Source of the DNA: Candidatus Bipolaricaulia bacterium
GTDB lineage: Bacteria > Bipolaricaulota > Bipolaricaulia > JBHIAT01
Length of the DNA stretch: 34,349 nt
Assembly (NCBI GenBank): GCA_046758705.1
Contig: JBHIAT010000016.1
Span: 1-34,349, forward strand
Reading direction: 5' to 3'
Positions within the stretch are counted from its first letter, which is position 1. Each line of letters opens with the position of its first letter. This document shows, piece by piece, positions 3,235-24,551 of the stretch. The translations under genes and the position numbers were made by a program. Below the pieces are notes generated by a model. That model saw only the letters and a list, made by a program, of their open reading frames with translations, was not told the DNA's origin and searched no databases.

Positions 3235-4005
3235 ATGGAATTAGCTCAAACCAAAGCTGCTGCGGACCCCTTGGTCCAAATGCGCCAGGACCTGCAGCGC
3301 GCCCTGGCCAAGCCTGTGGAACAACGCAGCTGGGCGATGGTCATCGATATTCGCAGATGTGTGGGTTGCCGCGCCTGCGAGGCAGCCTGCATTCTAGAGA
3401 ACGTGCTCCCGCCCGGCGTGGCCTACCGGACGGTCCCCAGCGTCGAGTGGACTCATCCCCGCCTAGGGGAAGTCCGGCCGGTCTTCATGCCGGCCAACTG
3501 CATGCAGTGTGCCCGGCCCCCCTGCGTGGCGGCAGCGAACGCGGTCGTCCCAGGGAGCTTCAAGCAGCGGCCCGACGGGATCGTAACGATCGATTACGAG
3601 AAGGCCTATGCTCAGGGGAGAGAGGTTTTCGAGGCTGCGGCCCGTGCTTGTCCCTACCGCCAGGCGCTCTACTACGACGACGGCCGCTCCTGGACCGACA
3701 AACCTGATTGGACCCGGCCCACCTACGAATACAATCGGAAGTGGACCCGGGAAGAGGTCAGCGGTTCCCCCAGGAAGTGTCACTTCTGCCTGCATCGGCT
3801 GGAGGCGGGCATCCTGCCGGCCTGTGTGACAACCTGCATCGGCCGGGCCATCTACTTCGGCGACCTTAACGACCCGGAGAGCTTCGTCTCCCAAACCCTA
3901 CGGGAGGAGCACGCCCAAGTCTTAAGGATCCGGGAATATCGGGGTACTGAGCCTCAGGTCTATTACCTGAGCGACACGCCCAAGGAGTGCCAACGTTGGC
4001 ACTGA
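3235..4005 (+). CDS. Fe-S electron-transfer subunit (DmsB/ArrB/PsrB-like) with one cluster's ligands missing
   Basis: CVGCRACEAAC, CMQCARPPC, ACPY, KCHFC-x11-CVTTC, FGDLNDPES, GTEPQVYYL. RBS AAGGAGG. No Tat signal. Confidence 0.93.
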   Translation: MELAQTKAAADPLVQMRQDLQRALAKPVEQRSWAMVIDIRRCVGCRACEAACILENVLPPGVAYRTVPSVEWTHPRLGEVRPVFMPANCMQCARPPCVAAANAVVPGSFKQRPDGIVTIDYEKAYAQGREVFEAAARACPYRQALYYDDGRSWTDKPDWTRPTYEYNRKWTREEVSGSPRKCHFCLHRLEAGILPACVTTCIGRAIYFGDLNDPESFVSQTLREEHAQVLRIREYRGTEPQVYYLSDTPKECQRWH

Positions 4006-4031: not shown

Positions 4032-6620
4032 ATGCTCACCACCAAGATCTCTCGGCGCGGCTTCCTGAAGGCCACGGGTTTTGCCACCGCCGCCGCCCTG
4101 ATGGGAGGTATGCTGAAGGATGGGTCTGTTTGGGCCTTCCAGGAGGCTCCCGTGTTGAAGGAGGAGCTGAAGGAGATCATCCCGAGCGCCTGCTGGATCG
4201 GCAAGCAGGACTGTGGACTCTTCGCCTGGAAGGCGGAGGGGCGCGTCATCAAGTTCGAAGGGCATCCGGATGAGCCGCGCACCCACGGAGCCCTCTGCCC
4301 CAAGGGCCAGAGCCAGATCGCTTCGCTCTACGACCCCTATCGGGTGAAGGCCCCCCTCAAGCGGACGAACCCCAAGGGCCAACCGGGCCAGTGGATCGAG
4401 ATCAGTTGGGATCAGGCATTGAGCGAGATCGCGGCCAAGCTCAAGGAGATCAAGGAGACCGACATTCGGCGCTTCATCTGGCAGGTCGGACGGAAGAAGG
4501 CGAAGTATTGGCACCACGAGGCCTTTAATAAAGCGTTCGGCACCGTCAACAAGTACGGTCACGGGGCGACCTGCTCCGATGCGGGCTACCGGGCGGAGGA
4601 GTTGATCTTCGACCAGCACGGCTGTGCCGAAGTGGACTTCAAGCACTGCGAGTATTTCCTCGCTTGGGGCTGGAACATCACGCAGGCTGGCGGGCCACAC
4701 CTCTGCCAGATCACCTGGCCCCAGCAGATCATAGAAGCAAAAAGACGGGGCATGAAGATCGTTGCGCTGGACCCCCTGATCCGCGGGGGCGCCCACCTGG
4801 TCGATGAGTGGGTGTCCATCAAGCCCGGAATGGACCTGGCCTTCTGGCTGGCCATGGCTAACGTCTTGGTCGAGAAGGGTTACCTTGACGAGCCGTATCT
4901 GAAGAAGTTCACGAACGCCCCGGTGCTCGTAGGGCCGGATGGGCTGTTGCTCATCCAGGACGGCAAGGAGCTGGTCTGGGATCCCGCAGCCGGGCAGGCC
5001 TGGCCCCATGAGGAGGTGGCCGACCCCGCGCTCACCGGCACCTATGCGATCAACGGGGTGGAGTACAAGACAGCCTTCCAGCTGTACCAGGAACACATTG
5101 CCAAATACACGCCCGAGTGGGCGGCCGAAAAATGTGGCGTGGCCGCGGAAAAGATCCGTCAAATAGCCACAGAGTTCGGCGAGAAGGCCCAGATCGGGAA
5201 GACGATCACCATCGAGGGCGTGGAGGTTCCGTATCGGCCGGTGGGCATTGGCTTCTACCACGTGGTTCAGCAGGAGCTGGGCGCGATCGTGGCCTACGCC
5301 GCCTTCCAGGTGACAATGCTGGTGGGCGCGGTGGATGTGGCTGGCAGCACGCGGCCGCGCAAGGGCAAGGACACAAAGCCCGACGTGAAGCACCGCAAGA
5401 AGTGGATCGATTTGGCTATGCATCCCGAAAAGGTCAAAGAGATCCCCGATGGCCCTTCCCTCGACGGTACCAAGTTCTTCCCGATCAGCAGCGGTGGCTA
5501 CACGATCACCCCGCTGGTGCTCGCCAACCCCGAGAAGTACGACCTGCCCTACCAGCCGGAGCAGATGGCCATGTGGGTGCAGATGGCCAACCCCGTCATG
5601 TCCTCGATGCCCCAAGATGTGGTTATCCGGGGCTTGAGCCGGCTGGGGCTGATGGTCGTGGTCGACCCGTTCATGAGCGAGACGGCCGACTACTGCGCCG
5701 ACTACGTGCTCCCCGCGGCCACCATCGACAAGTACGAGGGACCGCTGAGCGGCTTCACCGGGTATGAGAAGGTCTCGCTGCTGCGGTTCCCCGTGGTGCC
5801 CCCGATGTTCGATTCCAAGCCCGACGCCGAGATTTACATCGAGATGGCCGAGCAGCTCGGGATCCTGGAGCAGTACGTCGAGGCGCTCAACGGGCAACTC
5901 AAGCTGAAGGAGGAGTTGAAGCTCGATCCGGCCCAGAAGCCCAGCCTGGAGGATGCGCTCGACCGCTGGGCGAAGAGCCAGGGCAAAAGCCTCCAGTGGT
6001 TTAGAGAGCACGGGGTCTTGGTCAAATCGATGCCGGTTCAGCAGTGGTATGCGTATCTTTGGGACCCACCGTACGGCGGGGTCAAGCACGCCTTCTACTC
6101 TGAGGTCCTGCTCCGCCTGGGCCGAACCGTGCGGGAGCGGGGCGTGAACGCACCCTACGTGCAGGACTACAACCCATTTCCCACTTGGCGGAAGCCGGCG
6201 ATGATGCAGTCGCCGCCGGAGTACGATCTAACCCTGATCAGCTTCCATAAGATCGAGCACAAGCAGTCCCGCACGGCAAACAACGTCATCCTCAACGCGA
6301 TGGACCCCATCAGCTACGTCCGCCTGCACCCGGAGACGGCGAGGGCGAAGGGCATCAGAGATGGCGATGAGGTCTGGGTGGAATCCCACAACGCCGTGAC
6401 GGGTGAGACCCGCCGGGTCAAAGGACGGGCTAAGCTCACCGAAGGCCTCATGCCGGGGGTGATGGCAATCGCTCATCACCATGGAAACTGGAGCCACCCC
6501 ATCACGAAGGAAAGGGATCAAGGCATCTCGCCCAACGTGATCTTCCCCTCGGGCGAGGGCTACGTCGGTCTCACGGGCGACCAGGCTTTCCAGGTGAAGG
6601 TTAAGGTGTCCAAGGCTTAA
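4032..6620 (+). CDS. Tat-exported Mo/W-bisPGD oxidoreductase catalytic subunit (DMSO reductase family; Arr/Arx/Psr/Anr neighbourhood)
   Basis: SRRGFLK Tat motif. FS0 region CWIGKQDC-x27-CPKG. Predicted Mo-ligand region HGATCSDAG. DPFMSETADYCADYVLP. C-terminal LHPETARAKGIRDGDEV. RBS GAAGGAGG supports ATG 4032 over the track's 3987. Confidence 0.93.
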   Translation: MLTTKISRRGFLKATGFATAAALMGGMLKDGSVWAFQEAPVLKEELKEIIPSACWIGKQDCGLFAWKAEGRVIKFEGHPDEPRTHGALCPKGQSQIASLYDPYRVKAPLKRTNPKGQPGQWIEISWDQALSEIAAKLKEIKETDIRRFIWQVGRKKAKYWHHEAFNKAFGTVNKYGHGATCSDAGYRAEELIFDQHGCAEVDFKHCEYFLAWGWNITQAGGPHLCQITWPQQIIEAKRRGMKIVALDPLIRGGAHLVDEWVSIKPGMDLAFWLAMANVLVEKGYLDEPYLKKFTNAPVLVGPDGLLLIQDGKELVWDPAAGQAWPHEEVADPALTGTYAINGVEYKTAFQLYQEHIAKYTPEWAAEKCGVAAEKIRQIATEFGEKAQIGKTITIEGVEVPYRPVGIGFYHVVQQELGAIVAYAAFQVTMLVGAVDVAGSTRPRKGKDTKPDVKHRKKWIDLAMHPEKVKEIPDGPSLDGTKFFPISSGGYTITPLVLANPEKYDLPYQPEQMAMWVQMANPVMSSMPQDVVIRGLSRLGLMVVVDPFMSETADYCADYVLPAATIDKYEGPLSGFTGYEKVSLLRFPVVPPMFDSKPDAEIYIEMAEQLGILEQYVEALNGQLKLKEELKLDPAQKPSLEDALDRWAKSQGKSLQWFREHGVLVKSMPVQQWYAYLWDPPYGGVKHAFYSEVLLRLGRTVRERGVNAPYVQDYNPFPTWRKPAMMQSPPEYDLTLISFHKIEHKQSRTANNVILNAMDPISYVRLHPETARAKGIRDGDEVWVESHNAVTGETRRVKGRAKLTEGLMPGVMAIAHHHGNWSHPITKERDQGISPNVIFPSGEGYVGLTGDQAFQVKVKVSKA

Positions 6621-6642: not shown

Positions 6643-7308
6643 ATGGTGCTGACCATAGGGCTTGGCAGGCAGGCGGCCAAGGTCTACCGCTTCCTCAGCC
6701 GAGCCTACCTGCAGCCTCCGGATCGTCCCTATCTTGAGGCCGTCGCCGCCTGGAGCGCCGAGCTTCTCGCGTGCCGTGAGCCCCTTCCCGAAGGGATCGT
6801 CTCGGCACTCGAGCTCATTCAGGAGGCCCTTAAACCGGGCGTTGAGAGGCGGTTGCGGGAGCTCCAGCAAGAGTACGTGCGCCTCTTCCGCGGCCTCTCC
6901 CCACACTATTCGCCTCCACCCCCCTACGAGTCGGTTTACCGAGAGGGAGCTTTGTGGGGCTTCTCGACGGCCGCCGTTCGGAGGAGATACCGGGAGTTCG
7001 GCCTGGAGTCCGGTGGAGATTTCAGCCGCGAACCTCCCGATCAGCTGGGGCTCGAGCTGCAGTTCATGAGCCACCTATGCGAGCGAGGGGCCCATGAGCG
7101 CTCCCAACACCTGTTGCAGGCGCAACACGATTTCCTTGTGGAGCACCTGTCATGGGTTGGAGCGTTTGAGGAGCGGGTGCGCTCGCATCGGCCCCATCCC
7201 TTCTACGAGGGCTTCCTGCGACTGACGGGGGCATGGCTCAAGCTCCACCGGGAGCATCTTGCCGCGTTCCAGAAGACGACCCGGAGCCTGGAGTCGGAAT
7301 CGGGATAA
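6643..7308 (+). CDS. TorD/DmsD family redox enzyme maturation chaperone
   Basis: EYVRLF, PPPYESVY, EPPDQLGLELQFM, FLVEHLSW. Directly follows the catalytic subunit. Confidence 0.92.
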   Translation: MVLTIGLGRQAAKVYRFLSRAYLQPPDRPYLEAVAAWSAELLACREPLPEGIVSALELIQEALKPGVERRLRELQQEYVRLFRGLSPHYSPPPPYESVYREGALWGFSTAAVRRRYREFGLESGGDFSREPPDQLGLELQFMSHLCERGAHERSQHLLQAQHDFLVEHLSWVGAFEERVRSHRPHPFYEGFLRLTGAWLKLHREHLAAFQKTTRSLESESG

Positions 7309-7491: not shown

Positions 7492-8490
7492 ATGAACAGA
7501 AGAAGATGGTATCTTGCCGGGATCGTGGTGCTGCTCTTAGCCGCTATAGGACTGGGATTTGCTTCTCAATCCCAGCAGGCGGGGAACGTGCTCACTGTGG
7601 TCAGAGTCACCTCCCCTCCAACCCTCGACGGGCGGATGGACGATCTGTGGGCTCAGGCTGACGCCATTCAGGTGCCCGTCTTCGCCGGAGCCAACATGGG
7701 ATCGACTACGGTGGCTCTGAAGGCCGTTTATACGGACGATGCGATCTACTTCCTCGCCCGTTGGCAGGATCCAACCCTGAGCCTGAGGCGGTTCCCCTGG
7801 CAGAAACAGGAGGATGGGAGCTGGAAACAGCTCACAACAAGCGCCGAGCACGACGAGAACACCTACTATGAAGACAAATTTGCCATCCTGTGGAACATCG
7901 ATAACTCCATCGCAGGCTTCAACCAGAGCGGTTGCATGGTGGCGTGCCACGTGGGTGAGGGGAAAGCCTATGGCAACATGCGTACCGCCTCGGAAGGAGA
8001 GCTCGGAGATATGTGGCACTGGAAGTCCGTCCGGACCGGACCGGTGGGTCAGCTGGACGACAAGTACCTGAATAATACCTCCCCCTCAGGACGCCACGCC
8101 GATCCCAAACAGGAGGGAGGCTATTCCAACAACGTCAACCAGGCCGGAGACCGACCCGCCTTCACTGCCGCCAGTCAACCGGTACCTCCATACTGGATCT
8201 ATGACGACGAGAAGACCCCGTTCATGGATATCTACCAGGTCGGGGATGAGATCGCCGGCATCATCGTCTCTCCCTTCGTGGGGGACCGCGGGGATGTGAA
8301 GGCGGAAGCGTACTACGAGGATGGCCTGTGGACTCTGGAGATCGGTCGTAAGCTGGCCACAGGCAGTCCGTATGATGCTCAGTTCGATGACCTGTCCGAG
8401 AGTTACTTATTCGGTGTGGCCGTCTTCGACAATGCACAGGTGCGGCACGCCTTCTCCGGCGGTGTTTACGAACTGCGGTTTGGCAGATAG
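7492..8490 (+). CDS. Exported ethylbenzene dehydrogenase gamma-like (EB_dh/DOMON) heme-binding protein
   Basis: Signal peptide, PTLDG...W, IYFLARWQDPT, YYEDKFAILW, CMVACH (Cx3CH), DMWHWKS, W.LEIGRKL.TG, FGVAVFDN. RBS AAGGAG supports ATG 7492. Confidence 0.85.
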   Translation: MNRRRWYLAGIVVLLLAAIGLGFASQSQQAGNVLTVVRVTSPPTLDGRMDDLWAQADAIQVPVFAGANMGSTTVALKAVYTDDAIYFLARWQDPTLSLRRFPWQKQEDGSWKQLTTSAEHDENTYYEDKFAILWNIDNSIAGFNQSGCMVACHVGEGKAYGNMRTASEGELGDMWHWKSVRTGPVGQLDDKYLNNTSPSGRHADPKQEGGYSNNVNQAGDRPAFTAASQPVPPYWIYDDEKTPFMDIYQVGDEIAGIIVSPFVGDRGDVKAEAYYEDGLWTLEIGRKLATGSPYDAQFDDLSESYLFGVAVFDNAQVRHAFSGGVYELRFGR

Positions 8491-9025: not shown

Positions 9026-9451
9026 GTGAATCCCATGGTTGCGAAGACCCGAAAGAAGCGCTACCAGATGGCCGTCGGGGTCACGGTGATCGTGATCGGA
9101 ATCGGGTACCTGCTGATCTCAAGCTTCTCCGGAACCACCGTCTACTACTATCAGGTCGATGAGCTAAGCGATCTGGAGATCCTCCCCACCGAGCGGATCC
9201 GGGTGAGCGGGCAACTGGTTCCGGGGACGGTCAACTACGACCCCACGATCCCGATGTTACGGTTCACCCTGGCGAGCGAGGGCAGCTCAGCACAACTTCA
9301 GGTCATCTATCGGGAGATCCAACCCGATAACTTCCTGAGGAGCACCGAGGTGGTGGTGACCGGTTACCTGGAGGGCGATCGATTCACCGCCGAGGAGATG
9401 TTGGTCAAGTGCCCGTCGCGGTATGAGTCCGTCCCAGAGGAGGGAAGCTGA
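9026..9451 (+). CDS. ccmE: Heme chaperone CcmE, CxxxY type
   Basis: N-terminal TM, IRVSG.LVPG, PDNF...EVVVTG, MLVKCPSRY. Confidence 0.93.
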   Translation: MNPMVAKTRKKRYQMAVGVTVIVIGIGYLLISSFSGTTVYYYQVDELSDLEILPTERIRVSGQLVPGTVNYDPTIPMLRFTLASEGSSAQLQVIYREIQPDNFLRSTEVVVTGYLEGDRFTAEEMLVKCPSRYESVPEEGS

Positions 9452-11415
<1,964 letters not shown>

Positions 11416-11419
<4 letters not shown>

Positions 11420-11892
11420 ACCTAAGCCTAAGCTCAAGCTCAGGCAAAGCGCTCCCGGTGACGTTGATCTTGCTGATCTTTCTGGCCTCGACCCCCGTCT
11501 CCGATATCGAGGACCAGCTGATCTGCCAATGCGGCTGCACCATGGTCGTCTCCTCCTGCCAGTGTAGCGTGGCCGATGAGATGCGCGCTGAGATCGCCGC
11601 CAAGTTGGAGATGGGAATCACATCTGGACAGATCATCCAGGGGTTTGTCGATCGCTACGGCGAGGCGGTCCTCTCCGCCCCCACCAAACGCGGGTTCAAT
11701 CTGACCGCCTGGGTGACCCCGTTCGTCGCCGTCGTCGCTGGCTTGGTCCTGCTTTATTTCATTGTGCGGGGACTTGTCTCGCGAGGAGGACAGTTGGTCG
11801 AGAACCGCCCTCCGGCCTCGGCAAATCTGGACGAGGAGACGCGAGCGCGGATCCGGGAGGAAATCGACGAGGAGCTCAAGGGCTACATGTGA
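11416..11892 (+). CDS. ccmH: CcmH-like cytochrome c biogenesis protein (CxCGC...CxC variant)
   Basis: LICQCGCTMVVSSCQCSVADEMRAEI, FVDRYGEAVLSAP...GFN..AW..P. ATGA overlap with ccmF. Confidence 0.8.
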
Positions 11893-11902
11893 GGTGTTCC
11901 CC

Positions 11903-12166
11903 ATGTTCGCAACCACCGTGGGTCTGCTGATCGCGGCGGCCGTCGGCCTTTATATCTTCCTCCCTTATTTCATCGGAGAGGAGAAACAGCGAGAGGAAGA
12001 CCCGATGGACCGGGAAATCAGACGGGAGGAGCTGATGAGAGAGCTCGCCGATCTGGAGTACGACCTCCAGACCGGAAAACTGAGGCAGGCGGACTACGAA
12101 GCGCTCCGGGCCGATCTGGAGAACCAGCTGGTACAACTCAAGGGGGAACCATCAGATGATCGGTGA
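11903..12166 (+). CDS. Small membrane protein resembling the CcmI N-terminal region
   Basis: TM followed by ELADLEYDLQTGKL..ADYEAL. RBS GAGGTG before ATG 11903. Confidence 0.65.
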   Translation: MFATTVGLLIAAAVGLYIFLPYFIGEEKQREEDPMDREIRREELMRELADLEYDLQTGKLRQADYEALRADLENQLVQLKGEPSDDR

Positions 12167-12893
12167 GGGCAACCACCCTGACCTGCTGGAGCTGGTCGAC
12201 GTCTCCAAGGTAATTGGAGACCGTAAGATTCTCAACCGAATCTCCTTCCGATTCAGACGGGGAAAGCGCTACTACCTGGCGGGCGCGAACGGCTCCGGCA
12301 AGACGACCCTGTTCAAGGTGATCGCCTCCCGCATGAGGGCAACCCGCGGACAGGTCCGATACGAAGGCCGCAACATCGCAGATCTCGATGGGCAGTATTT
12401 GAGAAAGGTCGCGTTTCTGTCGCACGAGCTGAACATGTACGAAGAGTTGAGCGGCCTGGACAACCTCGAATTCTTCGGCCAGGTGTACCGGGTTCCAAGA
12501 CCCTGGGAACGGGCCATGGAGTTGATCGAGCGGGTCGGCCTGAGACTGTTCGCAAACGAGCGGGTGAAATACTACTCGCGCGGGATGCGCCAGCGACTGG
12601 CGGTCGCCAAAGCCCTGCTCCACGATCCGACTGTGCTCCTGTTCGATGAGCCGTTCGCCGGGTTGGATCTGCGGGGTGTGGCCATGCTGGAGGAGATCAT
12701 CGACGAGATGCTGCCCAAAGGTCAAGGGCTGTTCATCCTGGCGACACACGATCCAGGGATCGCCTGGAGGTTAACAGATCACTATCTCTATTTGGAACGG
12801 GGCACGCTCCAATCCTATGGGGGCCAGGAACGGTACGTTCACCAGGATATCGAGCGCAAACTGAGGGAAGCGCGGGATGTGGGGGTGTACTGA
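12156..12893 (+). CDS. ccmA: Heme ABC exporter ATPase CcmA
   Basis: GANGSGKTT, YSRGMRQRL, LLFDEPFAGLD; ccm context. Confidence 0.9.
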   Translation: MIGEGNHPDLLELVDVSKVIGDRKILNRISFRFRRGKRYYLAGANGSGKTTLFKVIASRMRATRGQVRYEGRNIADLDGQYLRKVAFLSHELNMYEELSGLDNLEFFGQVYRVPRPWERAMELIERVGLRLFANERVKYYSRGMRQRLAVAKALLHDPTVLLFDEPFAGLDLRGVAMLEEIIDEMLPKGQGLFILATHDPGIAWRLTDHYLYLERGTLQSYGGQERYVHQDIERKLREARDVGVY

Positions 12894-13570
12894 TGGAGCT
12901 CATCACCGGAGCATGGCTGGTCTTCAAAAAGGACATCCGCTATGAGCTTGAGAACAAGGAGACGCTGATTATCCTGTTCGTCTTCTCGCTGACTGTCGCG
13001 CTCACCTTCAACTTCGCCTTCGACCTGTCCCGTACGGAAGCCCGCCGGTTCCTGCCGGGGTTGATCTGGATCACGGCGTTGTTTGCGAGCGTTTTGGGCT
13101 TCAACAAGAGTATGGCGTTTGAAAAACGGGGCGATGCCTACGGCGGACTGCTGATCGCCCCTATCCCGAAGACATCGATATTCTTGGGAAAAGTCTCGAG
13201 CTCGTTGGTCTTCCTGTGGGCCGTGGAGATGGTGGTGATCCCGCTGTTCTTCCTGTTTTTCAACGTCGAGCTGTCGGCCAAGATCTTCGGCTTCCTGGTC
13301 ATCGTATTCCTGTTGGGGAGCGTGGGGCTTTCGGTCATCGGCTCGTTTCTGACGAACCTGTGTCAGGGATCCAAAAACAGCGAGATCCTGTTCTCCTTGG
13401 GCTACTTTCCCCTGGTCGTTCCGATCTTGATATCGGGCACGAAGCTCTCTGCGGGCATACTAGACGGGAAGTCGATCGTCGCAGGTCCGTGGGTGAAGCT
13501 GTTGATCATCTTCGGTCTGGTCTACACGGTCATCTGTCTTCTGTTGTTTGAGTATCTGGTGGAGGAATGA
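12893..13570 (+). CDS. ccmB: Heme exporter protein B
   Basis: KKDIRYE, PGLIW, FE..G...GLLIAP, IFLGK, FPLVVPILI; multi-TM. Confidence 0.9.
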   Translation: MELITGAWLVFKKDIRYELENKETLIILFVFSLTVALTFNFAFDLSRTEARRFLPGLIWITALFASVLGFNKSMAFEKRGDAYGGLLIAPIPKTSIFLGKVSSSLVFLWAVEMVVIPLFFLFFNVELSAKIFGFLVIVFLLGSVGLSVIGSFLTNLCQGSKNSEILFSLGYFPLVVPILISGTKLSAGILDGKSIVAGPWVKLLIIFGLVYTVICLLLFEYLVEE

Positions 13571-14268
13571 AGGAGATGAACGGCATCATGAACCGAAGAA
13601 GGATCGCCTTGTTGCTGCTCACCGCCGTGTTGATGGGGGTGAACCTGTATCTGATCTTCATCTACGCACCGAAAGAGCAGATCATGGGGGATGTCCAGAG
13701 GATATTCTACTTCCACATGCCGTTGGCCATCATCAGTTTCTTGGCGTTCCTGCTGACCTTTGTGAGCGGGATCCTTTACCTGAGGAGCCGGGATGTGAGG
13801 CATGACCTTCGAGCTCGGGCCTCTGCCGAAGTCGGATTGGTCTTCCTCAGCTTAGCGCTCATCACCGGCTCCCTGTGGGCCAAGGCGACCTGGGGGGTCT
13901 ACTGGACCTGGGAGCCGCGGCTGACCACGACGTTTATCCTGTGGCTCATGTACGTCTTCTATCTGACCCTGAGGGGGTATATCGAAGATCGGGAGAAGAT
14001 GCGGACGATCACGGCCGCCTACGGCGTGATCAGCTTTATCAACGTCCCGATCGTCTTCATGTCGATCCGTTGGTGGAGGACACTCCATCCGGTGTTGATC
14101 GATACCAATGAGATCGCGATGGAGCCGCCCATGGTCGTTGCCCTGATCTTCTCGATCTTCACGTTCGTGGGTCTGTTCGCCCTGCTGTTGAGTGAACGGA
14201 CCCGACTGGCCAAACTGGAACATGAGCTCCAACGCGCCAAAGAGCGGATAAAGGAGGCATGGCGATGA
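13567..14268 (+). CDS. ccmC: Heme exporter protein C
   Basis: QRIFYFHMP, WAKATWGVYWTWEPRLTT, SIRWWRTLHP. Confidence 0.95.
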   Translation: MKEMNGIMNRRRIALLLLTAVLMGVNLYLIFIYAPKEQIMGDVQRIFYFHMPLAIISFLAFLLTFVSGILYLRSRDVRHDLRARASAEVGLVFLSLALITGSLWAKATWGVYWTWEPRLTTTFILWLMYVFYLTLRGYIEDREKMRTITAAYGVISFINVPIVFMSIRWWRTLHPVLIDTNEIAMEPPMVVALIFSIFTFVGLFALLLSERTRLAKLEHELQRAKERIKEAWR

Positions 14269-14411
14269 CTTCCTTGTATGCAGCGTTCTCGATCGTGTGG
14301 GCAGTGTTCTTCGCCTACAACGCTTATCTGATGCGGAGAACGAATGACCTCGAGAACGAGGTCCGATCTCTGAAGGATTTTCTCGCGAGCCCGGGGAATA
14401 GAGATGGCTGA
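14265..14411 (+). CDS. ccmD: CcmD-like small membrane protein (48 aa, not in ORF track)
   Basis: Manual translation MTSLYAAFSIVWAVFFAYNAYLMRRTNDLENEVRSL...; RBS AAGGAGG; ATGA overlap with the ccmC stop. Confidence 0.8.
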   Translation: MTSLYAAFSIVWAVFFAYNAYLMRRTNDLENEVRSLKDFLASPGNRDG

Positions 14412-14976
14412 ACAAAAGGGACAGCGGTTCGTTCTGCTGCTGCTCATCAGCTTCGCTGCGGTCGCGGTCGCCGCCACGGTGATCACCCCGGGGCTGGTCG
14501 ACGAACCTTCGCCCCAACCCCGACCTGCCGCCGAGCGTTCCGGGACGGAACAGGAGGGGCTAATCGAGATGCTCGAGATCTATGAGCATCTCGCCGAACA
14601 GAACCCTGAAAACCCGGATTACCGGGTCATCCTGGGGAACCTCTACTCCCAGCTCGGGGATTGGAGCAGAGCCGCGGAGAACCTGGTGCAGGCCGCGGAA
14701 CTGGAACCCGAGAACGCACATCTGCAGATTGACCTGGGGATCACCCTGTGGCACGCCGGACGTGAGGAGGAGGGTCTGGTCCATTTCGATGAGGCGCTGC
14801 GTCTGGATCCGTCCCTGATCTTCGCCCGCTATTACAAGGGGATGCTTCTCGGCGGGATGGCCGGACGAGAGGAAGAGGCAATCGCCGAGTTGGAACAGGT
14901 GCTCGCCGACGCTGAGGATCCGGAACTCATCGGTCAAGCCGGAGCGGTGTTGCGAACGTTGCTCGGTCGCCGGTAA
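14404..14976 (+). CDS. Membrane-anchored TPR protein (CcmI/NrfG-like)
   Basis: N-terminal hydrophobic anchor, TPR motifs (LGNLYSQLG, LGITLWHAG, ALRLDP); last gene of the ccm cluster. Confidence 0.75.
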   Translation: MAEQKGQRFVLLLLISFAAVAVAATVITPGLVDEPSPQPRPAAERSGTEQEGLIEMLEIYEHLAEQNPENPDYRVILGNLYSQLGDWSRAAENLVQAAELEPENAHLQIDLGITLWHAGREEEGLVHFDEALRLDPSLIFARYYKGMLLGGMAGREEEAIAELEQVLADAEDPELIGQAGAVLRTLLGRR

Positions 14977-15208: not shown

Positions 15209-16972
15209 ATGAAGACGGGCTTGATCATCACACTCGTTGCGGCCTTGGTGGTTGGGATAGGGGCAGCCGTGGTGCTCACCCAAGAGAGTAAGCAAACCCC
15301 TCCAGCAGCCAGGATCGAGCTTGAGGGCGAGATAGAGGGGGTGGTTGACGAGCAAGGTCATCCGATCAAGACTTCGGCCCTGTCCAACGTCGGGGTCGGC
15401 ACCTACGTGTTCCTCAAGGGCATCGGCGAGGGCGAAGAGATCATCGCCATGGCCTGGGAGTTCACCCCGCCCAGGGGTTCGGCGGCCACCCTGACCAAGG
15501 TAGACGACGGCCTGCCCACCCATGCCTACTTCATGGCTGACGTGGTAGGACAGTATAGGGTCAAGCTCACCGTTACCGACTCGCACGGTACCACGGGCGA
15601 GGCGACGCTGATGGTCAATGCTGGCACCTATGTCGGCGTCGGCAACGTTGCCGGGGCTCTGGCCCGCCCGCCTCAGTGTGCCATTTGCCATGCTGAACAG
15701 GCTGCAAGTTGGGCTGAGACCGATCACGCCAGCATGTTCACGCGTGGGGTAGACGGCATTGTCAGTAGCCACTATGGGGAATCCTGTGTTGCGTGCCACA
15801 CGGTGGGCTACGACGAGACGGCCGACAACGGCGGCTTCGACGACGTGGCTGCCCGAGTGGGCTGGACGTTCCCGGAGACCCTACAGCCGGGCAACTGGGA
15901 TGCTATCCCCGGCGAGCTGAAGCAACTGGGGAATATCGGGTGCGAGAACTGTCACGGTCCGGGCAGTGAGCACAGCAGCAGGCTGGAAGGCATTGCCACC
16001 TCCCTGAGTGCGGACAACTGCGGCTTCTGCCACAATGAGCCCTGGCGGCACATCAGGAACGTGCAGTGGGCGAACTCGGGCCATGCCGACACCACATCTC
16101 GCGCTTTCACCTATCCCATCGGCGAAGGACACGAAAGTTGCGTGAGGTGCCACTCCGGTGAAGCTTTCGTGGACATGGCCGAAGGCAAGGAAGAGCTTCG
16201 CCTGGGCTTCCAGACCATCACCTGTGCCGTGTGCCATGACCCGCATAGCGCGGAGCACGAGACTCAACTGCGCGTGGTGGACGAGGTCACCCTGCCCGAT
16301 GGCACTGAGGTCACCGGCGTTGGTGCCTCTGCCTTGTGTATGAGTTGCCACAATGGCCGCCGCGGCCCCGGCGAGGTTGCCGAGGCGGAACCGCACTATC
16401 CGCACTACAGCACGGCCGCGGAGATGATCACTGGCACCGGCGGCTTCGACTATGGCGAGTCGGTGGAGGACTCCATACACGTGACCATGACGCGTGTCGG
16501 CTGCGTGGACTGCCACATGGCCGCAACGCCAGGCTGGGCAGATAGGGAAAGGACCCAACCTCTGCCTGGCCACGACGAGGTCGGTGCCCATACCTTCAAC
16601 GTGACCTCGTCGGACGGTGTGGAGAACCTGGCGGCTTGCACTAGCTGTCACCTCGACCTGAAGAACTTCAACCGGACCGCGCGCGCCGACTACGACGGCA
16701 ACGGCACGGTAGAGGGCATTCAGGATGAGGTGCAGAGCCTGTTGGATCTGGTCTTCGATGCCATCCTGGCCAGCGGTGTCGAGTGGCTAGGGCACTATCC
16801 CTACTGGGACAATGTGACCACCGAAGCCCAGAAGGCTGCTATCTTCAACTGGAGCTTTGTCGATCACGACGGCAGTCTGGGCATCCACAACACTGCCCGT
16901 GCTGTACAGCTGTTGCAGCGGAGCTACACGGGCTTGACCGGTGAGGATGTGCCGGGAGCTGATCTGCGTTAG
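15209..16972 (+). CDS. Exported/anchored 9-heme cytochrome c with N-terminal PKD/Ig-like domain
   Basis: 9 CxxCH (CAICH, CVACH, CENCH, CGFCH, CVRCH, CAVCH, CMSCH, CVDCH, CTSCH), GQYRVKLTVTDS, C-terminal DGSLGIHN. RBS AAGGAGG. Confidence 0.9.
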   Translation: MKTGLIITLVAALVVGIGAAVVLTQESKQTPPAARIELEGEIEGVVDEQGHPIKTSALSNVGVGTYVFLKGIGEGEEIIAMAWEFTPPRGSAATLTKVDDGLPTHAYFMADVVGQYRVKLTVTDSHGTTGEATLMVNAGTYVGVGNVAGALARPPQCAICHAEQAASWAETDHASMFTRGVDGIVSSHYGESCVACHTVGYDETADNGGFDDVAARVGWTFPETLQPGNWDAIPGELKQLGNIGCENCHGPGSEHSSRLEGIATSLSADNCGFCHNEPWRHIRNVQWANSGHADTTSRAFTYPIGEGHESCVRCHSGEAFVDMAEGKEELRLGFQTITCAVCHDPHSAEHETQLRVVDEVTLPDGTEVTGVGASALCMSCHNGRRGPGEVAEAEPHYPHYSTAAEMITGTGGFDYGESVEDSIHVTMTRVGCVDCHMAATPGWADRERTQPLPGHDEVGAHTFNVTSSDGVENLAACTSCHLDLKNFNRTARADYDGNGTVEGIQDEVQSLLDLVFDAILASGVEWLGHYPYWDNVTTEAQKAAIFNWSFVDHDGSLGIHNTARAVQLLQRSYTGLTGEDVPGADLR

Positions 16973-18057: not shown

Positions 18058-20379
18058 CTAGTGGACTTCCGACCGACGATCGCTCTCCTCCAGCTCTAAC
18101 GGATGCTCCTCCTCCATCCGTTCCAACGAGACCGTCCCGCTGATCCAAACCATGTCCATCGGGTAGACGTCGGGGTTGAAGATGACCCAGTAGAAGTGCC
18201 AGATCAGGATGGCCAACACGGCGAGGATCGCCTCGTAGAAGTGAGTGAGGATGAACAGGTCGATCCACCACTCGGGAAGGAACCTGAGCGTGATGTTCTC
18301 CAGCCAAAGGCTGAACCCGGTCAGTCCCATGACCATCGTTCCCCAGATCAGCGCCCAGTACTCGATCTTCTCGATGTAGCTGAACCGGTGGAATCTCGGG
18401 CGTTCGCTCAGCAGCCCCAGGTTGTAGCCGACGAGTTGGACGGCATCTCGAAGGTCTTGCATGCGGGGAAGCAGCGCCCTGAGCTGCTCCCTGCCTCGTT
18501 GGGTGAAGATGATGAGCAGGAGTTGGACGACGATGCTCGCCAGCAAGATCACAGCGGCGACCCTATGGATGAACCCCCTGACGGGATCCCCCCCCAGGCT
18601 CATCACCGGCGCGACCCACAGAGAGTCGGGATAGCGCCGGGCAAAGCCCGTATAGGCGAGGACGATAAACGAGACCAACATCGCCACGTGGAGAAACCGC
18701 TCCAGCCGGTTGAATCTGAGATAGAAAGCCTCAGACTCAGAGGGAGGGGACGCATGGGCGTGGGGGTGGGGGTGGGGATGGGGATGTACGTGTAGGGTTC
18801 CGCCCCGCTCCCCCATCTTCCTGAAGAAATCCACGACATTGTGGAGGAACATCCCCCCGACGGTGAAGCCGATCAACCCGATGTAGATGCGCCGGACCAG
18901 CCCGATGATCTGTCCCCCGGTTCCCGGTTCGTCTGTGTGGATCTTACCGACCAAAACGGTCTGCTCCCCAACACCGGGATGACACTGGCCACAGGTCTGC
19001 GGAAGGTTGTTGGGGTTCACCCAGGAAGCGGAGTCCGAAGACGGAAGGATCTTGTGTGCGCCGTGGCAGCTGGAGCAGTTGGCAACGGTCAGGTTACCAC
19101 CCCTCAGCGCGAGGCCGTGGTAGCTGGAGAGATAGGTCTCAAGCCGCATCGCCGGGATGCCATATCTTTCAGTAATTCTCACATTCCTGTGGCAGTCGGC
19201 ACAGGTGATAGGAATGTTGCGCGGGTAAACCGGGGAACCTGGGTCTTCAGGGGACAATATCGCATGCTCCAGATGGCAGTCGTTGCAGACCGGAGCCTCT
19301 CGGACCCCTGTTACATAACCCTTCCAGTGGATACTCTGGACGTAGTTCTCATAAACGGGCTCATGGCACTGGGAGCAGGTCTTCGGTATGTTTCCCTTGT
19401 GGATCGAGGACTTGAGCTCGGTCAGCGGTCTGATCTCGTGGCTTCCATGGCAATTGGTACAGGTGGCCACGTCGATGTTCCCCTGAGCGAGCGCTTGAGC
19501 ATGGACGCTTTTTTCATACAGTTCGTAGGGGTTTTCGATAGGGATCCCGTACTTCTGAGCCAGTTCAGGATCCGAATGGCACCTGCCACAGGTCGAGGGA
19601 AGGTTCTGGGGATAGATGAGAGAGCCCATCTCCCGCCCCGGAAGGATATTGTGCGTTCCATGACAATCCCAGCAGTGGGCGGCCTCCTCGATCCCTTCCC
19701 CGATGGCCTCCGCGTGGATACTTTCTTGGTAAAGTGCCTCAGCGCTCCGATGGCACAGGCCGCATCGGACCGATTCGAGTGTTGTGGCGTGGGGCAACCT
19801 GCCGATGCCTCGGTGACAATCGATACACTCCAGGTCTTTGTGGATGGATGCTTGATACATCTCGACGTCCACAAACGGAAACGGCCCACCCTGGATCCCG
19901 TGACATCTCTGACAGGTGTTGCGGTCGAACTGGGTCTCTACGTGATAGGTCTCCGAAGCGGCCACGTCCATATGGCAGGTGGAACAGAACCTCTCTATGT
20001 TCTGGGGATGGAGGGGGGACTCCGGGCTCGATCGGGGGTAGATCTCGTGCTCCCCATGACAGAGTGTACAGTCTGGAGCCTGCGTGTTTCCCCGCTCCCG
20101 CGCTCGGGCGTGAACGTCCAATTCGAAGCGCTGGGTCATATCCTGGTGACACAGCCCACAATCGATGCGCTTGGCGGGTACAGGATGGGGAAGCGCTTTG
20201 ATATCCTGGTGACAGTCGGTGCATCGGGTGCCCTCGTGAACGGTCGCGTTGAGATCCACATTCTGGTGGCAGATCATGCATGGCTCGTTGGGAAGCCCCT
20301 CGGGAATGCCCGGAACCTTCCAGACGAGCAGCAACCCGAGGAAAACTCTCAAGAAGATTCTTGTCTGCGAATCGCTCAT
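18058..20379 (-). CDS. CbcL-like fusion: 16-heme cytochrome c plus FdnI/HyaC-type cytochrome b membrane domain
   Basis: 16 CxxCH, then TM helices with ERFLH, FIHRVAA, RFSYIEKIEYWALIWG, THFYEAILA..AILIWHFY. Confidence 0.9.
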   Translation of the reverse strand: MSDSQTRIFLRVFLGLLLVWKVPGIPEGLPNEPCMICHQNVDLNATVHEGTRCTDCHQDIKALPHPVPAKRIDCGLCHQDMTQRFELDVHARARERGNTQAPDCTLCHGEHEIYPRSSPESPLHPQNIERFCSTCHMDVAASETYHVETQFDRNTCQRCHGIQGGPFPFVDVEMYQASIHKDLECIDCHRGIGRLPHATTLESVRCGLCHRSAEALYQESIHAEAIGEGIEEAAHCWDCHGTHNILPGREMGSLIYPQNLPSTCGRCHSDPELAQKYGIPIENPYELYEKSVHAQALAQGNIDVATCTNCHGSHEIRPLTELKSSIHKGNIPKTCSQCHEPVYENYVQSIHWKGYVTGVREAPVCNDCHLEHAILSPEDPGSPVYPRNIPITCADCHRNVRITERYGIPAMRLETYLSSYHGLALRGGNLTVANCSSCHGAHKILPSSDSASWVNPNNLPQTCGQCHPGVGEQTVLVGKIHTDEPGTGGQIIGLVRRIYIGLIGFTVGGMFLHNVVDFFRKMGERGGTLHVHPHPHPHPHAHASPPSESEAFYLRFNRLERFLHVAMLVSFIVLAYTGFARRYPDSLWVAPVMSLGGDPVRGFIHRVAAVILLASIVVQLLLIIFTQRGREQLRALLPRMQDLRDAVQLVGYNLGLLSERPRFHRFSYIEKIEYWALIWGTMVMGLTGFSLWLENITLRFLPEWWIDLFILTHFYEAILAVLAILIWHFYWVIFNPDVYPMDMVWISGTVSLERMEEEHPLELEESDRRSEVH

Positions 20380-20394
20380 CTTTCGCCTGGCTTC

Positions 20395-20456
20395 AGTGTA
20401 AATGATCCCGGATCAATTGCTATGATCCGGGTCACCGACCGGTATGATCCTCGATG
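20395..20456 (-). promoter_or_regulatory. Crp/Fnr-type internal promoter
   Basis: TGATccggGTCA 20423-20434; half site at 20445; TACACT on the minus strand (20400-20395), 22 nt from the box. Confidence 0.6.
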
Positions 20457-20468
20457 AGAAGCGATGGA

Positions 20469-22268
20469 CTAGAAGCGCGTGTGGCACTTCATACAGTTGG
20501 TCCCCTGGGGGGGCAGGTCGTTGGCGTGACAGGTGCTGCAGACTTCATGGCCAAGCTCCGGGACGGCCGTCTCCGATCGGGCGAACTCGAGGTGATCGAG
20601 GGTGTTCACATTCTGATGACACAGCTGGCACGGCAGACCGAACCCGATATGTCTCTCATGGGGGAAGGTGACGATCTCCGACACCGTTCCGATATCGGCC
20701 TCATGGCATGACAGGCAATCGGTCGGTGAGGCGGCACGCATCGCCTGCGCCCCGGGGTGACAGCGCTCACAGCTCTCCAGCGTCAGAGTCCCATGCTGAT
20801 CCAAATCCCCATGACAGATGGTGCATCGGATCCCGGCTTCCACAGCGTGGGGGCGGTGTTCAAACGTTCTTCCGAACGTCTCAGCCGCGATGTACTCGAT
20901 GCCATAGTGGCATTGGTTGCAGCTGATCTCGTAAGGGACCTGGAGCCAGGATTCCTCCAGGGTTTCCTCCACGCTGGCCTGCGTTAACGCGGCGTTCAGA
21001 GCCTCATGAGCCCTCTCCAACAGTGCCAGCGCGTAATCTGGGTTGTGGATGCCCCGTCCACGTTCCACCAGGTCGATATTCTTCCACGCCTCCTGCAAAA
21101 GCCCCTCGACCTCCCCCCCGATCCCGTCCAGTTTGCCCTTGACATGTACAAACTCCTCCTCTACGCCCCTCAGCCGGTTGTCCACCGATGCCTTCCAGCT
21201 CTTATAGATGGCGAAGTACCCGGTGTCGTGACAGTTCATACAGCTTACCTCATTGGCGACTCGGTGGGCCGCTTCGGGGAGGATATGACAACCCTCACAG
21301 CTGACACCGGCCAGATACATGGGACTGGGCTGGGGATTCACCCCCTTGCCTCCGATCCCGAGGTAAAGATCGCGGGTGGGGGAATGACCCAGCGAATGGC
21401 AGGTTTCACAGCTGGTTGCGATAATCTCCAGTTTCTCCGGGACCTGATGAGATATCTCCTGATGACAGTTCAGACACTCCACCTTATGCTCGGTGACATG
21501 GGTTGTATGCAGAAACTCGGTCTCGCCGTATCTCCGCAGTCTGGCCGGTTCGTTATGACAGGTATAACACCGATCGGTGGGGACGTCCCCCTCCCCTGTG
21601 ACCACCCCTTTATGGCAGAAGGTGCAGTCCATTCCGAACTGTCTCACGTCGTCATGGTCGAAGGCCAAGCCAGCGGTGGTGATGATCTGGCTGGGAACCT
21701 CATGGCACAGGGTGCAGCGGGCCGTCCCCTGGTTCAACGCCACCCCCTTGAAGTGGCACAGGGAACAGGTGCTGGTAGTGACGGTAATGTGCTGCCCCTG
21801 GACGATCTGCGAGTGGCAGCTGGTGCACCGGAGTTGCTTGCCCCGCCGGAGTTCGGTCAAGTGGGGACGGTGATCGAACAGGATCCCCTCAAAGACCTCC
21901 TTCCCCACGAGCAGGCGTTTTTCATGGCAACCAGCCCTGAGGCAGCTTTCATCAGATACCTCCGCCCAGGGGTTGGTGCCATAGGTCCCGGTCAGGTAGC
22001 TGACGACCATGGCGGAGGCCTCATACTTCTTTCTGAACGTGGAGACGATGCCCGGCGGGATATGGCACTCGACGCAGGCGACCTCGTTATGGCTGGAGGT
22101 TTTCCAGGACCGATAGTAGGGCTTCATAAAGTGACAGGTGTTGCAGAAGCCGGGGAGAGATGAGATCTCCATGCCGACGAACGCAAACGCAATCCCCAAC
22201 GGCACCAAGATGATGAGCACCATCCCGATCCGCTTCCCCCGCCGTCCCCTGATCCTGATCCGCCTCAT
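20469..22268 (-). CDS. Membrane-anchored multiheme cytochrome c with NapC/NrfH-like N-terminus (18 CxxCH + 1 Cx4CH)
   Basis: Basic N-terminus and TM, FCNTCHFM...SW..SSH..V.CVECH, CLRAGCH, further CxxCH motifs up to CMKCH. Confidence 0.9.
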   Translation of the reverse strand: MRRIRIRGRRGKRIGMVLIILVPLGIAFAFVGMEISSLPGFCNTCHFMKPYYRSWKTSSHNEVACVECHIPPGIVSTFRKKYEASAMVVSYLTGTYGTNPWAEVSDESCLRAGCHEKRLLVGKEVFEGILFDHRPHLTELRRGKQLRCTSCHSQIVQGQHITVTTSTCSLCHFKGVALNQGTARCTLCHEVPSQIITTAGLAFDHDDVRQFGMDCTFCHKGVVTGEGDVPTDRCYTCHNEPARLRRYGETEFLHTTHVTEHKVECLNCHQEISHQVPEKLEIIATSCETCHSLGHSPTRDLYLGIGGKGVNPQPSPMYLAGVSCEGCHILPEAAHRVANEVSCMNCHDTGYFAIYKSWKASVDNRLRGVEEEFVHVKGKLDGIGGEVEGLLQEAWKNIDLVERGRGIHNPDYALALLERAHEALNAALTQASVEETLEESWLQVPYEISCNQCHYGIEYIAAETFGRTFEHRPHAVEAGIRCTICHGDLDQHGTLTLESCERCHPGAQAMRAASPTDCLSCHEADIGTVSEIVTFPHERHIGFGLPCQLCHQNVNTLDHLEFARSETAVPELGHEVCSTCHANDLPPQGTNCMKCHTRF

Positions 22269-22278
22269 CGGCTCAGCT

Positions 22279-23478
22279 TCACCTCCGCCGCGGACCCCTT
22301 CGGTAGAGATAGATCACCAGGACGATGGACAGGACATAGACCCAGAAGATGGACAGTCCCACCAACCGGAACCGGGTGGCACCCTGCAGGCCGTGAATCT
22401 CCCCCCAAACCTGCTCGCCGATCGACCTCGCCTGCCGGGTCAGCTCTTCCACCCGGGCTTCATCCAGAGAATGCTGCATCGGGAGGGCCTGGGTGAGGGC
22501 CGTGTTCGCCTGGTAGAGTCTCGACCGGTAGGTGGAGGTGTCAAAGCCGAGCCGCTCCACCTCGGCGCGCTCCGCCTCCGCCCGATCCACCGCCGCCTCG
22601 GCCTCGACGAGCAGGGTCTTCAATCGCTGCCCCGCCGCGAACGCATCAGAGCCTCTGGCATGGCACCCGATGCACGCCGTTTCGAACAGCTCGTGGTTGA
22701 CCTCCCTTATTGCATGGTCGCCGTGGCAGCTGACACATTCGGGGATCGTCTCCTGATCCATTGCCTGCTTGTGGGGACCTTCACGAAGCTGCTGTCGTGT
22801 CCGCAGATGGCATTGATCGCACACCTCTGAGATCCCCTTGACATCCGGGAGGCCCGTCCCGTGGACACCATGACAGGTCGCACAGTTGGGCGCTTTGCGA
22901 TTCTCCTCCTTCAGGAGGGCGACCCCGTGGACGCTCTCCGTAAACTGCTCGAATGGGTCGCTGGAGATCCCGTGATACGCCATGAGGGTGGTATCCGCGT
23001 GGCACCGGGCACAGGTCTCGGGCACGTTCTCCGGATAGACACTGCTCCTCGGCTCCTCGGGGGACAAGATACGATGCGCCGTATGGCAATCTGTACAGAC
23101 CGCTACGTCGGTATCCCCGGCTGCAAGGCGAATCCCATGCTGAGAGGTTCGGTACTGTGCATATTGATCGGTGGGGATGTCATAGGATCTCATCGCCACC
23201 GGATCGGCGTGGCACGAGGCACACAGCTCAGGGATCCCCGATCGCTTCGGTCTTCCCTTGAATCCGGTCTCTGGGGCCATCGCCTCCATGCCTGTCACCG
23301 TCCCATCTCCCCCGTGACAGTCGACACAGGTGATGGCGAGGTTGGTGTGCACGCTCTCGCGGTACTCCACCCGGATCCGGCTGTGGCAGACACTGCAGGA
23401 GGTCCCTTCCTCGCCAACCGCCCCGAATGCTGATCCGATCACGATGGCGATCGCGATCCACAACACGGCTTTGATCAA
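22279..23478 (-). CDS. 9-heme cytochrome c with signal peptide and C-terminal membrane anchor
   Basis: 9 CxxCH, C-terminal TM followed by RRGPRRR. TTG start with GGAGGAGG RBS, coupled to the upstream gene. Confidence 0.9.
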   Translation of the reverse strand: MIKAVLWIAIAIVIGSAFGAVGEEGTSCSVCHSRIRVEYRESVHTNLAITCVDCHGGDGTVTGMEAMAPETGFKGRPKRSGIPELCASCHADPVAMRSYDIPTDQYAQYRTSQHGIRLAAGDTDVAVCTDCHTAHRILSPEEPRSSVYPENVPETCARCHADTTLMAYHGISSDPFEQFTESVHGVALLKEENRKAPNCATCHGVHGTGLPDVKGISEVCDQCHLRTRQQLREGPHKQAMDQETIPECVSCHGDHAIREVNHELFETACIGCHARGSDAFAAGQRLKTLLVEAEAAVDRAEAERAEVERLGFDTSTYRSRLYQANTALTQALPMQHSLDEARVEELTRQARSIGEQVWGEIHGLQGATRFRLVGLSIFWVYVLSIVLVIYLYRRGPRRR

Positions 23479-23888: not shown

Positions 23889-23901
23889 CGTCCCTCACAT
23901 C

Positions 23902-24540: not shown

Positions 24541-24551
24541 ATCTTAATATC

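Follow-up and report, generated by a model that had tools for sequence, protein, structure and literature searches.

A widespread clade of anchor-less molybdoenzyme beta subunits without FS4 ligands and with a conserved histidine-bearing C-terminal tail

The electron network that a molybdoenzyme joins is set by its beta subunit. We analysed a 34 kb stretch of a Candidatus Bipolaricaulia genome (GenBank JBHIAT010000016.1, positions 1 to 34,349; 34,349 nt, hereafter the window, to which our statements on its NrfD and gene content are limited) that encodes the iron–sulfur (beta) subunit of a Psr/Phs-like molybdopterin enzyme. This beta subunit has lost the four cysteines assigned to the distal cluster FS4. 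The absence of FS4 is an inherited trait of a large, widespread clade of TtrB-like betas rather than a private loss; it goes with the absence of an adjacent NrfD membrane anchor, and the clade carries a C-terminal tail that resembles a haem-binding site. We judge it very probable that this beta truly has three clusters, has no anchor and is served by cytochromes; for the whole reading, in which the tail is in addition a functional site, we estimate a probability of about 50%. Desulfovibrio FdhAB already provides an example of a periplasmic enzyme that has a three-cluster beta and no membrane anchor. What is new here is a tail that is present only with FS4 loss, and a beta swapped onto an alpha subunit of the NrfD-dependent type.

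The beta subunit retains ligands for three clusters

A sequence-only reading of this DNA had proposed that the second of the four cysteine groups has lost its fourth cysteine and the third its first three, with groups I and IV intact. Translation of positions 3499-3657 gives CMQCARPPCVAAANAVVPGSFKQRPDGIVTIDYEKAYAQGREVFEAAARACPY, identical to that reading, and alignment with PsrB of T. thermophilus (PDB 2vpw_B, phmmer E 1e-27) bears the pattern out. The group II segment CMQCARPPCVAAA pairs with CLHCENPPCVPVCP of PsrB, with Ala101 in place of the fourth cysteine, and EKAYAQGREVFEAAARACPY pairs with KKCIACG-----ACIAACPY, placing Ala124, Gln127 and Ala135 at the first three cysteines of group III and retaining Cys139. 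From NarH/PsrB numbering, we take the four lost positions to be the ligands of FS4, the distal cluster. A four-cluster beta has 16 cysteines in four groups (FS1–FS4), of which the window protein has 12; these fit FS1–FS3, as in three-cluster betas of the FdhAB type, and its thirteenth and last cysteine is Cys252 in the C-terminal tail. The only additional residues that might fill FS4 in another way are Cys252 and His256, too few for an iron–sulfur cluster. A cluster rebuilt on tail ligands was accordingly rejected, given also that 34/120 homologs offer the histidine alone.

The AlphaFold2 (AF2) model of the protein has a mean predicted local distance difference test (pLDDT) score of 83.8 and has a helix at residues 121-138 in place of the former group III loop. 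Foldseek searches with this model yielded ArrB, PsrB, ActB and FdnH as best matches (probability 1.0), and the matches to 6cz7_B, 2vpw_B and 1kqf_B (probability 1.0, TM 0.5-0.75) identify the nested double-ferredoxin fold. By sequence the protein falls under every NCBIfam equivalog cut-off: TtrB (NF011569) scores 136 vs 416 bits and is matched in two stretches, ArrB 95 vs 450, NrfC 96 vs 378, DsrO 111 vs 200 and FDH3_beta 52 vs 240. An intact open reading frame (ORF), a confident fold model and a cysteine pattern kept in 120/120 homologs rule out a pseudogene or degenerate beta.

FS4 loss is shared by a clade

Two sets of relatives were assembled: the 120 nearest homologs (49-100% identity, query included), and 80 loci found by scanning one genome per species, from which 85 beta ORFs of at least 180 aa were taken and a 110-aa fragment (L060|1-330) was excluded. 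Betas without group III Cys1-3 are termed 3FS, those with all 16 cysteines 4FS. Among the nearest homologs, column 101 holds Ala in 117, Ser in two, Ile in one and Cys in none, and only one Cys occurs in the three group III columns overall (1/120, at the Gln127 column, which is a gap in 106/120). Cysteine absence conserved to this degree argues that the FS4-ligand pattern did not arise by chance. The 85 locus betas comprise 45 3FS, 39 4FS and one intermediate (L076); group II Cys4 is also missing from 42 of the 45 3FS proteins and retained in the other three (L035, L056, L075). The nearest four-cluster relatives, among representatives at 50% identity, are about 52% identical to the window beta, and the best match in the locus scan, at 75% identity, comes from a metagenome-assembled genome (MAG) of Candidatus Bipolaricaulota.

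In a beta tree computed after removal of the trait columns and the tail, the window and 42 further 3FS rows form one clade (Shimodaira–Hasegawa-like approximate likelihood ratio test (SH-aLRT) 95), and the three 3FS betas that retain the group II cysteine lie in another, so the trait needs two changes only. The coordinated FS4 loss proposed earlier is therefore real, but the 120 homologs, the 85 locus betas and the tree identify it as clade-wide inheritance and not as the fresh, private 'clean loss' that had been envisaged. Four distant beta lineages (P0144, P0147, P0152 and P0255) also lack the FS4 cysteines but have unrelated C-termini; FS4 was therefore lost several times, and the tail is specific to the window's clade.

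Three-cluster betas lack an adjacent NrfD gene

An NrfD gene starts at most 300 nt downstream, all ORFs considered, for 34 of the 39 4FS betas and for 0/45 3FS betas (Fisher p 1.6e-18, a statistic that ignores phylogeny). In the 4FS loci it lies mostly between beta and alpha, in a ttrBCA-like order. Pfam identified the membrane genes adjoining 4FS betas as NrfD in 29/29 cases; the ten nearest polytopic genes in 3FS loci include no NrfD and instead encode an ArsP permease, cytochrome b, SBF, TauE and similar proteins. A hidden Markov model (HMM) built from 28 Pfam-confirmed NrfD proteins matched 34 ORFs across the loci. In the 34-kb window, neither a six-frame search with this model at E<=10 nor Pfam scans of the ORFs gave any match, so the NrfD/PsrC membrane anchor expected of a four-cluster complex iron–sulfur molybdoenzyme beta is absent there. 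FS4 loss thus goes with the absence of an adjacent NrfD anchor, as the sequence-only reading had supposed, and none of the homologs with the loss keeps such a partner next to it.

Two 3FS loci, L018 and L023, have NrfD within 2.5 kb, in each case as part of a neighbouring 4FS module (NrfC/NrfD or PsrABC). In L023 (7283-13949) genes for a four-cluster NrfC-like protein and NrfD lie directly upstream of the 3FS beta-alpha pair and may form a separate quinol module that feeds the anchor-less enzyme. In L069 (10704-15173), a 1489-aa alpha ORF with 9 predicted membrane helices matches the NrfD profile (E 2e-140), an apparent NrfD-alpha fusion beside a four-cluster beta.

A conserved C-terminal tail accompanies FS4 loss

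The 3FS betas extend 11-30 residues beyond the conserved ...YYL strand and have a histidine near the end in 45/45 cases, while 4FS relatives usually end one residue past YYL and show the CxxCH tail motif in 0/39. In the 45 3FS loci the tail takes the form CxxCH in 39, C-x3-H in five (L001, L002, L003, L005 and L007) and histidine only in L004; in the 120 nearest homologs the corresponding numbers are 70, 16 and 34, with the histidine present in 120/120. Across the 165 clade members examined, the position of His256 is invariant. Position 255 is Cys in 87% of 3FS betas and Trp in the window. In relatives at 70-74% identity the motif is complete (ECASCH, ECSRCH); the window reads ECQRWH instead, and the C...WH form is kept across the window's subgroup at 70-79% identity; taken together, this indicates a tail under selection. 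Just five positions, N88, A100, C252, 255 and H256, carry a residue shared by 85% or more of the 3FS betas and by no more than 15% of the 4FS ones. In the AF2 model the tail is not disordered: it has pLDDT 79-91 (79 for residues 251-256) and a short helix at 249-253.

The CxxCH at the end of the tail, which many phyla conserve, is a hallmark of covalently bound haem, and from it we infer a haem at the distal end of the beta, in place of FS4, with the tail lying at the former FS4 end. The window beta itself, with CQRWH, lacks the CXXCH that defines a c-type cytochrome. Possible haem ligands, judging by their distribution, are Met85 (3487-3489; present in the window, in 78% of 3FS and in 10% of 4FS betas) and the position of Met206 (3850-3852; Met in 67% of 3FS and 0% of 4FS betas, Ile206 in the window). 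A methionine at residue 124, the former group III Cys1, was considered as distal haem ligand and rejected: it accompanies CxxCH in 60/70 near homologs and in only 10/39 loci, a phylogenetic effect. In the literature within our reach, which excluded subscription journals and supplements, we found no description of a CXXCH tail on an iron–sulfur beta subunit or of this gene cluster. An Armatimonadota beta with a histidine-only tail (P0062) and a homolog of the EB_dh-like protein described below (P0304) both have 196963 bases as the length of their longest contig and may share that contig, in which case degenerate tails would be tied to EB_dh-like partners.

A beta swapped onto a Psr-like alpha

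PsrA and ArrA are the solved chains closest to the window alpha (E 1e-38 for PsrA, 2vpw_A); its best NCBIfam match is PhsA, at 262 bits under a cut-off of 694, and the formate dehydrogenase alpha model gives 175 vs 666. Against alphas of the locus set it scores 867 bits in L080, 785 in L049 and 619 in L001 (a partial ORF), and merely 75-120 bits against the ~1050-1090-aa alphas that follow other 3FS betas. In L049 and L080 the orthologous alpha is followed by a 4FS beta and then NrfD, with a chaperone gene also in L049, and the same alpha-beta(4FS)-NrfD-chaperone order surrounds the more distant alpha of L018 (205 bits). The 4FS betas of these operons fall outside the clade that unites the 3FS betas with their ttrBCA-like sisters (SH-aLRT 96), which argues that the window beta was swapped in. 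As judged from these sequence relationships, the window and its Bipolaricaulota relative L001 join a Psr-like alpha to a beta of another lineage, placed upstream and without NrfD. The swap lends independent support to the idea that the type of beta sets the electron partner.

A widespread unnamed clade, annotated so far just as '4Fe-4S dicluster protein' or 'TtrB', thus lost FS4 along with the quinol anchor and acquired a haem-type motif, and such a beta can stand in for the standard beta plus NrfD of an ordinary Psr-like enzyme. This may also bear on annotation. TtrAB without TtrC in an Acidobacteriota MAG is ascribed to the end of a contig in one preprint (bioRxiv 10.1101/2020.10.01.322446); such 'TtrAB without TtrC' calls in MAGs may be complete, anchor-less enzymes.

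The alpha has an altered FS0 motif at 4191-4301, C-x6-C...C (CWIGKQDCG...ALCP) compared with C-x2-C-x3-C in PsrA, its second Cys being replaced by Gly. The alteration is also found in the alpha orthologs of L001, L080 and L049, and this conservation suggests that FS0 may be a [3Fe-4S] cluster or have a non-Cys ligand. In L022 (4562-9059; L027, L035, L056 and L075 have alike gene sizes) the 3FS beta-alpha pair is preceded by genes for a phosphonate-binding-type periplasmic protein, a histidine kinase and a sigma-54 response regulator, presumably a set resembling AioXSR. Genes for ArsP_1 (L006, L014), SBF-family (L033, L034) and ArsR (L009) proteins also lie near 3FS betas, a hint that the ~1060-aa alphas may act on an oxyanion, perhaps of arsenic.

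Comparison with known enzymes

The window beta shares with four-cluster betas of the PsrB/TtrB/NrfC type (PsrABC, 2vpw; ArrAB, 6cz7) the fold, cysteine groups I and IV, group II Cys1-3, the last group III Cys and a gene beside that of a twin-arginine translocation (Tat)-dependent molybdopterin alpha. It differs from them in having neither FS4 ligands nor an NrfD/PsrC partner, and in its additional His-bearing C-terminal tail.

For the three-cluster state there is precedent in the beta of Desulfovibrio vulgaris FdhAB, which has three [4Fe-4S] clusters and passes electrons to soluble partners (PMC11134731). In a phmmer alignment, the D. gigas formate dehydrogenase beta (1h0h_B) lacks the same four Cys positions as the window protein, and neither it nor D. 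vulgaris FdhAB (6sdr_B) has a membrane anchor, again like the window beta. The partners of FdhAB-type enzymes are periplasmic cytochromes. In other respects the two differ: the window beta is only about 24% identical to betas of this type, FdhB has no CxxCH/His tail, and the window alpha is Psr-like and not a formate dehydrogenase. The scores and the tree therefore do not make the window pair orthologous to FdhB and a formate dehydrogenase alpha. The sisters of the 3FS clade are four-cluster TtrB-like betas, which indicates that FS4 loss here was independent of that in FdhAB.

The window operon shares a NarJ-type chaperone and an EB_dh-fold protein with ethylbenzene dehydrogenase (EbdABC, 2ivf), of type II. 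In that enzyme electrons travel from FS0 as far as FS4 and on to the gamma haem (PMC8840923), whereas the window beta has no FS4 to face a gamma haem. The window EB_dh-like protein has an invariant Cx3CH (probably binding haem c) where EbdC has a Met/Lys-ligated haem b. None of the type II DMSO reductase models reaches its cut-off in the window (alpha 142 vs 985, TIGR03479; beta 76 vs 481, TIGR03478; gamma 18.5 vs 170, TIGR03477); the one score above its threshold is that of the fourth gene for the Pfam EB_dh domain (148 vs 33 bits). The beta of pyrogallol-phloroglucinol transhydroxylase (4v4c_B) also matches the window beta, by sequence (E 4e-12) and by Foldseek (E 2e-9). The transhydroxylase beta holds three clusters.

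Proposed electron path and alternatives

We propose that the beta carries electrons in a periplasmic Psr/Phs-like molybdoenzyme exported by the Tat route and would bind three [4Fe-4S] clusters, FS1-FS3, without FS4. In this clade the beta gene stands directly upstream of alpha, with no NrfD between them, and the tail that the betas have gained would form a new distal redox site, most likely a haem, that takes FS4's former role towards a membrane subunit. Cytochromes, and not quinol reached by way of NrfD, would then be the electron partners of the complex. Candidate partners in the window are the EB_dh-like Cx3CH protein, whose gene closes the operon, and the multihaem, NrfH-like and Rieske/cytochrome b proteins encoded nearby. 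The sequence-only reading had described a three-cluster wire that leaves through FS3 to a cytochrome. Its three-cluster part stands, but an exit at FS3 is incomplete as a description, since it overlooks the conserved His/CxxCH tail.

Our more specific suggestion is that FS4 was replaced clade-wide by a haem on the 11-30 residue tail, so that once exported by Tat an iron–sulfur protein would turn into a cytochrome c, the window's subgroup (C-x3-H, Trp for the second Cys) having a site with one thioether or none. This we hold only tentatively, and several observations weigh against it or against the reading as a whole. The window tail has no second Cys, and the Ccm system normally requires CXXCH, which makes covalent haem in the window beta doubtful; 34/120 homologs have a histidine-only tail; and no universal distal ligand is specific to 3FS betas. 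The beta is without a signal peptide and must exit folded with the Tat-dependent alpha, and we know of no established attachment of haem c to such a Tat passenger. On the tree, the co-variation with NrfD comes down to one or two evolutionary events, not dozens, and 5/39 4FS betas (L037, L040, L052|5135, L058 and L059) also lack an adjacent NrfD. Finally, no EB_dh-like gene was detected in any of the 80 loci (phmmer, and an HMM from 120 homologs at E<=1), so the link of that protein to the beta comes from one operon and is not generalisable.

The main alternative is a wire like that of DvFdhAB, in which electrons pass straight from a surface FS3 to a cytochrome (the EB_dh-like haem c protein or a multihaem one) and the tail of the window's subgroup is vestigial or serves docking or structure, free of any cofactor. 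We regard this as a serious possibility, though short of an even chance. It agrees with the loss of the second tail Cys in the window and of all tail Cys in 34/120 homologs, with the lack of any such tail in other three-cluster lineages (P0144, P0147, P0152, P0255 and D. gigas FDH beta) and with DvFdhAB, which runs on three clusters alone (PMC11134731); moreover the window, unlike the 80 loci, has a separate Cx3CH EB_dh-like protein able to supply the haem. An invariant His256 (165/165) and a C...WH kept at 70-79% identity are nevertheless hard to square with a functionless end, and AF2 places the tail confidently. A distant anchor is improbable: here an unlinked NrfD, or the b561-like domain of a 773-aa multihaem protein in the window, would dock the beta to quinol despite the lack of FS4. 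NrfD genes do occur within 2.5 kb in the 3FS loci L023 and L018, cytochrome b561-like genes lie upstream in L015 and L016, and our view takes in 34 kb of the genome; but adjacent NrfD is found for 0/45 3FS betas, and, if the Psr and Fdn-N structures apply, a wire lacking FS4 would presumably end too far from the membrane quinol site. Even less probable is that the clusters are non-respiratory, the enzyme performing net non-redox catalysis with a structural beta as in pyrogallol-phloroglucinol transhydroxylase. The match to 4v4c_B in sequence and fold would fit such a role, but the alpha has a Tat signal and is nearer PsrA and ArrA than any other solved chain, its closest orthologs belong to quinol-linked alpha-beta-NrfD operons, and the operon lies amid ccm, multihaem cytochrome and Rieske/cytochrome b genes.

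If the tail does bind haem, it would represent an unusual c-type haem attachment on a Tat passenger and a new way to end a cluster wire, and it would also explain how an NrfD/quinol-dependent enzyme can be re-plugged into a cytochrome network by a beta swap alone.

The operon and its neighbourhood

The plus-strand operon has the order beta-alpha-delta-gamma, gamma being the EB_dh-like gene (table 1). The beta start is preceded by a Shine-Dalgarno sequence, AGGAGG, 8 nt upstream, and the ORF cannot be extended further upstream, so the protein has no signal peptide of its own. The alpha start lies 27 nt past the beta stop, the beta thus being encoded with a molybdopterin alpha as in four-cluster systems. 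The ccm genes and four multihaem cytochromes lie within 20 kb.

Table 1. Features of the beta subunit and of the surrounding genes (coordinates refer to the window).
Feature	Coordinates	Strand	Remarks
Beta (Fe-S) subunit	3235..4005	+	256 aa, without own signal peptide; Pfam Fer4_11 E 1e-18
Cys group I, CVGCRACEAAC	3358..3390	+	C42, C45, C48, C52, intact; C in 119/120 homologs, gap in the remaining one
Cys group II, CMQCARPPCVAAA	3499..3537	+	C89, C92, C97 retained; 4th position Ala101
Cys group III remnant, YEKAYAQGREVFEAAARACP	3595..3654	+	C139 alone retained
Cys group IV, CHFCLHRLEAGILPACVTTC	3778..3837	+	C182, C185, C197, C201, intact
C-terminal tail, SDTPKECQRWH	3970..4002	+	Aligns with clade CxxCH: C252 retained, second Cys replaced by Trp255, His256 invariant
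Alpha subunit	4032..6620	+	862 aa; Tat signal SRRGFLK; Psr/Phs/Arr-like molybdopterin enzyme; Pfam Molybdopterin, Molydop_binding, Molybdop_Fe4S4
NarJ/TorD-type maturation chaperone (delta)	6643..7308	+	Pfam Nitrate_red_del E 2e-30
EB_dh-like protein	7492..8490	+	Hydrophobic N-terminal segment; CMVACH at 7933-7950; Pfam EB_dh E 8e-43; candidate haem c partner
Cytochrome c maturation genes CcmE, F, H, A, B, C and TPR protein	9026..14976	+	Pfam-based
Multihaem cytochrome c	15209..16972	+	9 CxxCH
Three multihaem cytochromes, split cytochrome b and Rieske genes	18058..25001	-	16, 18 and 9 CxxCH; candidate quinol-side electron source or sink

Homologs of the EB_dh-like protein are about 342 aa long, occur in many phyla and are annotated 'ethylbenzene dehydrogenase-related'. 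C148-x3-C152-H153 is invariant in 120/120 of them, as are H176, H319 and three Lys; the invariant Cx3CH suggests a covalent-haem (haem c) version of the EB_dh fold. We found no EB_dh-like protein with Cx3CH described, subscription journals and supplements again being outside our reach. By its operon position this protein is a likely partner of the beta, as are the nearby multihaem cytochromes; since FS4 is absent, either the tail site or FS3 would have to face the EB_dh-like haem.

The minus-strand genes at 18058-25001 include a 773-aa protein with 16 CxxCH fused to a cytochrome b561-like membrane domain and a 599-aa protein with an NrfH/NapC-like N-terminus and 18 CxxCH. With the split cytochrome b and Rieske genes, these cytochromes make up a dense quinol-to-cytochrome module beside the full ccm cluster. 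Molybdenum cofactor genes flank the operon, MobB at 2376-2936 (minus strand) in the window and a MobA-like gene at 1206-1850 in L001, which would fit an active bis-molybdopterin guanine dinucleotide (bis-MGD) enzyme.

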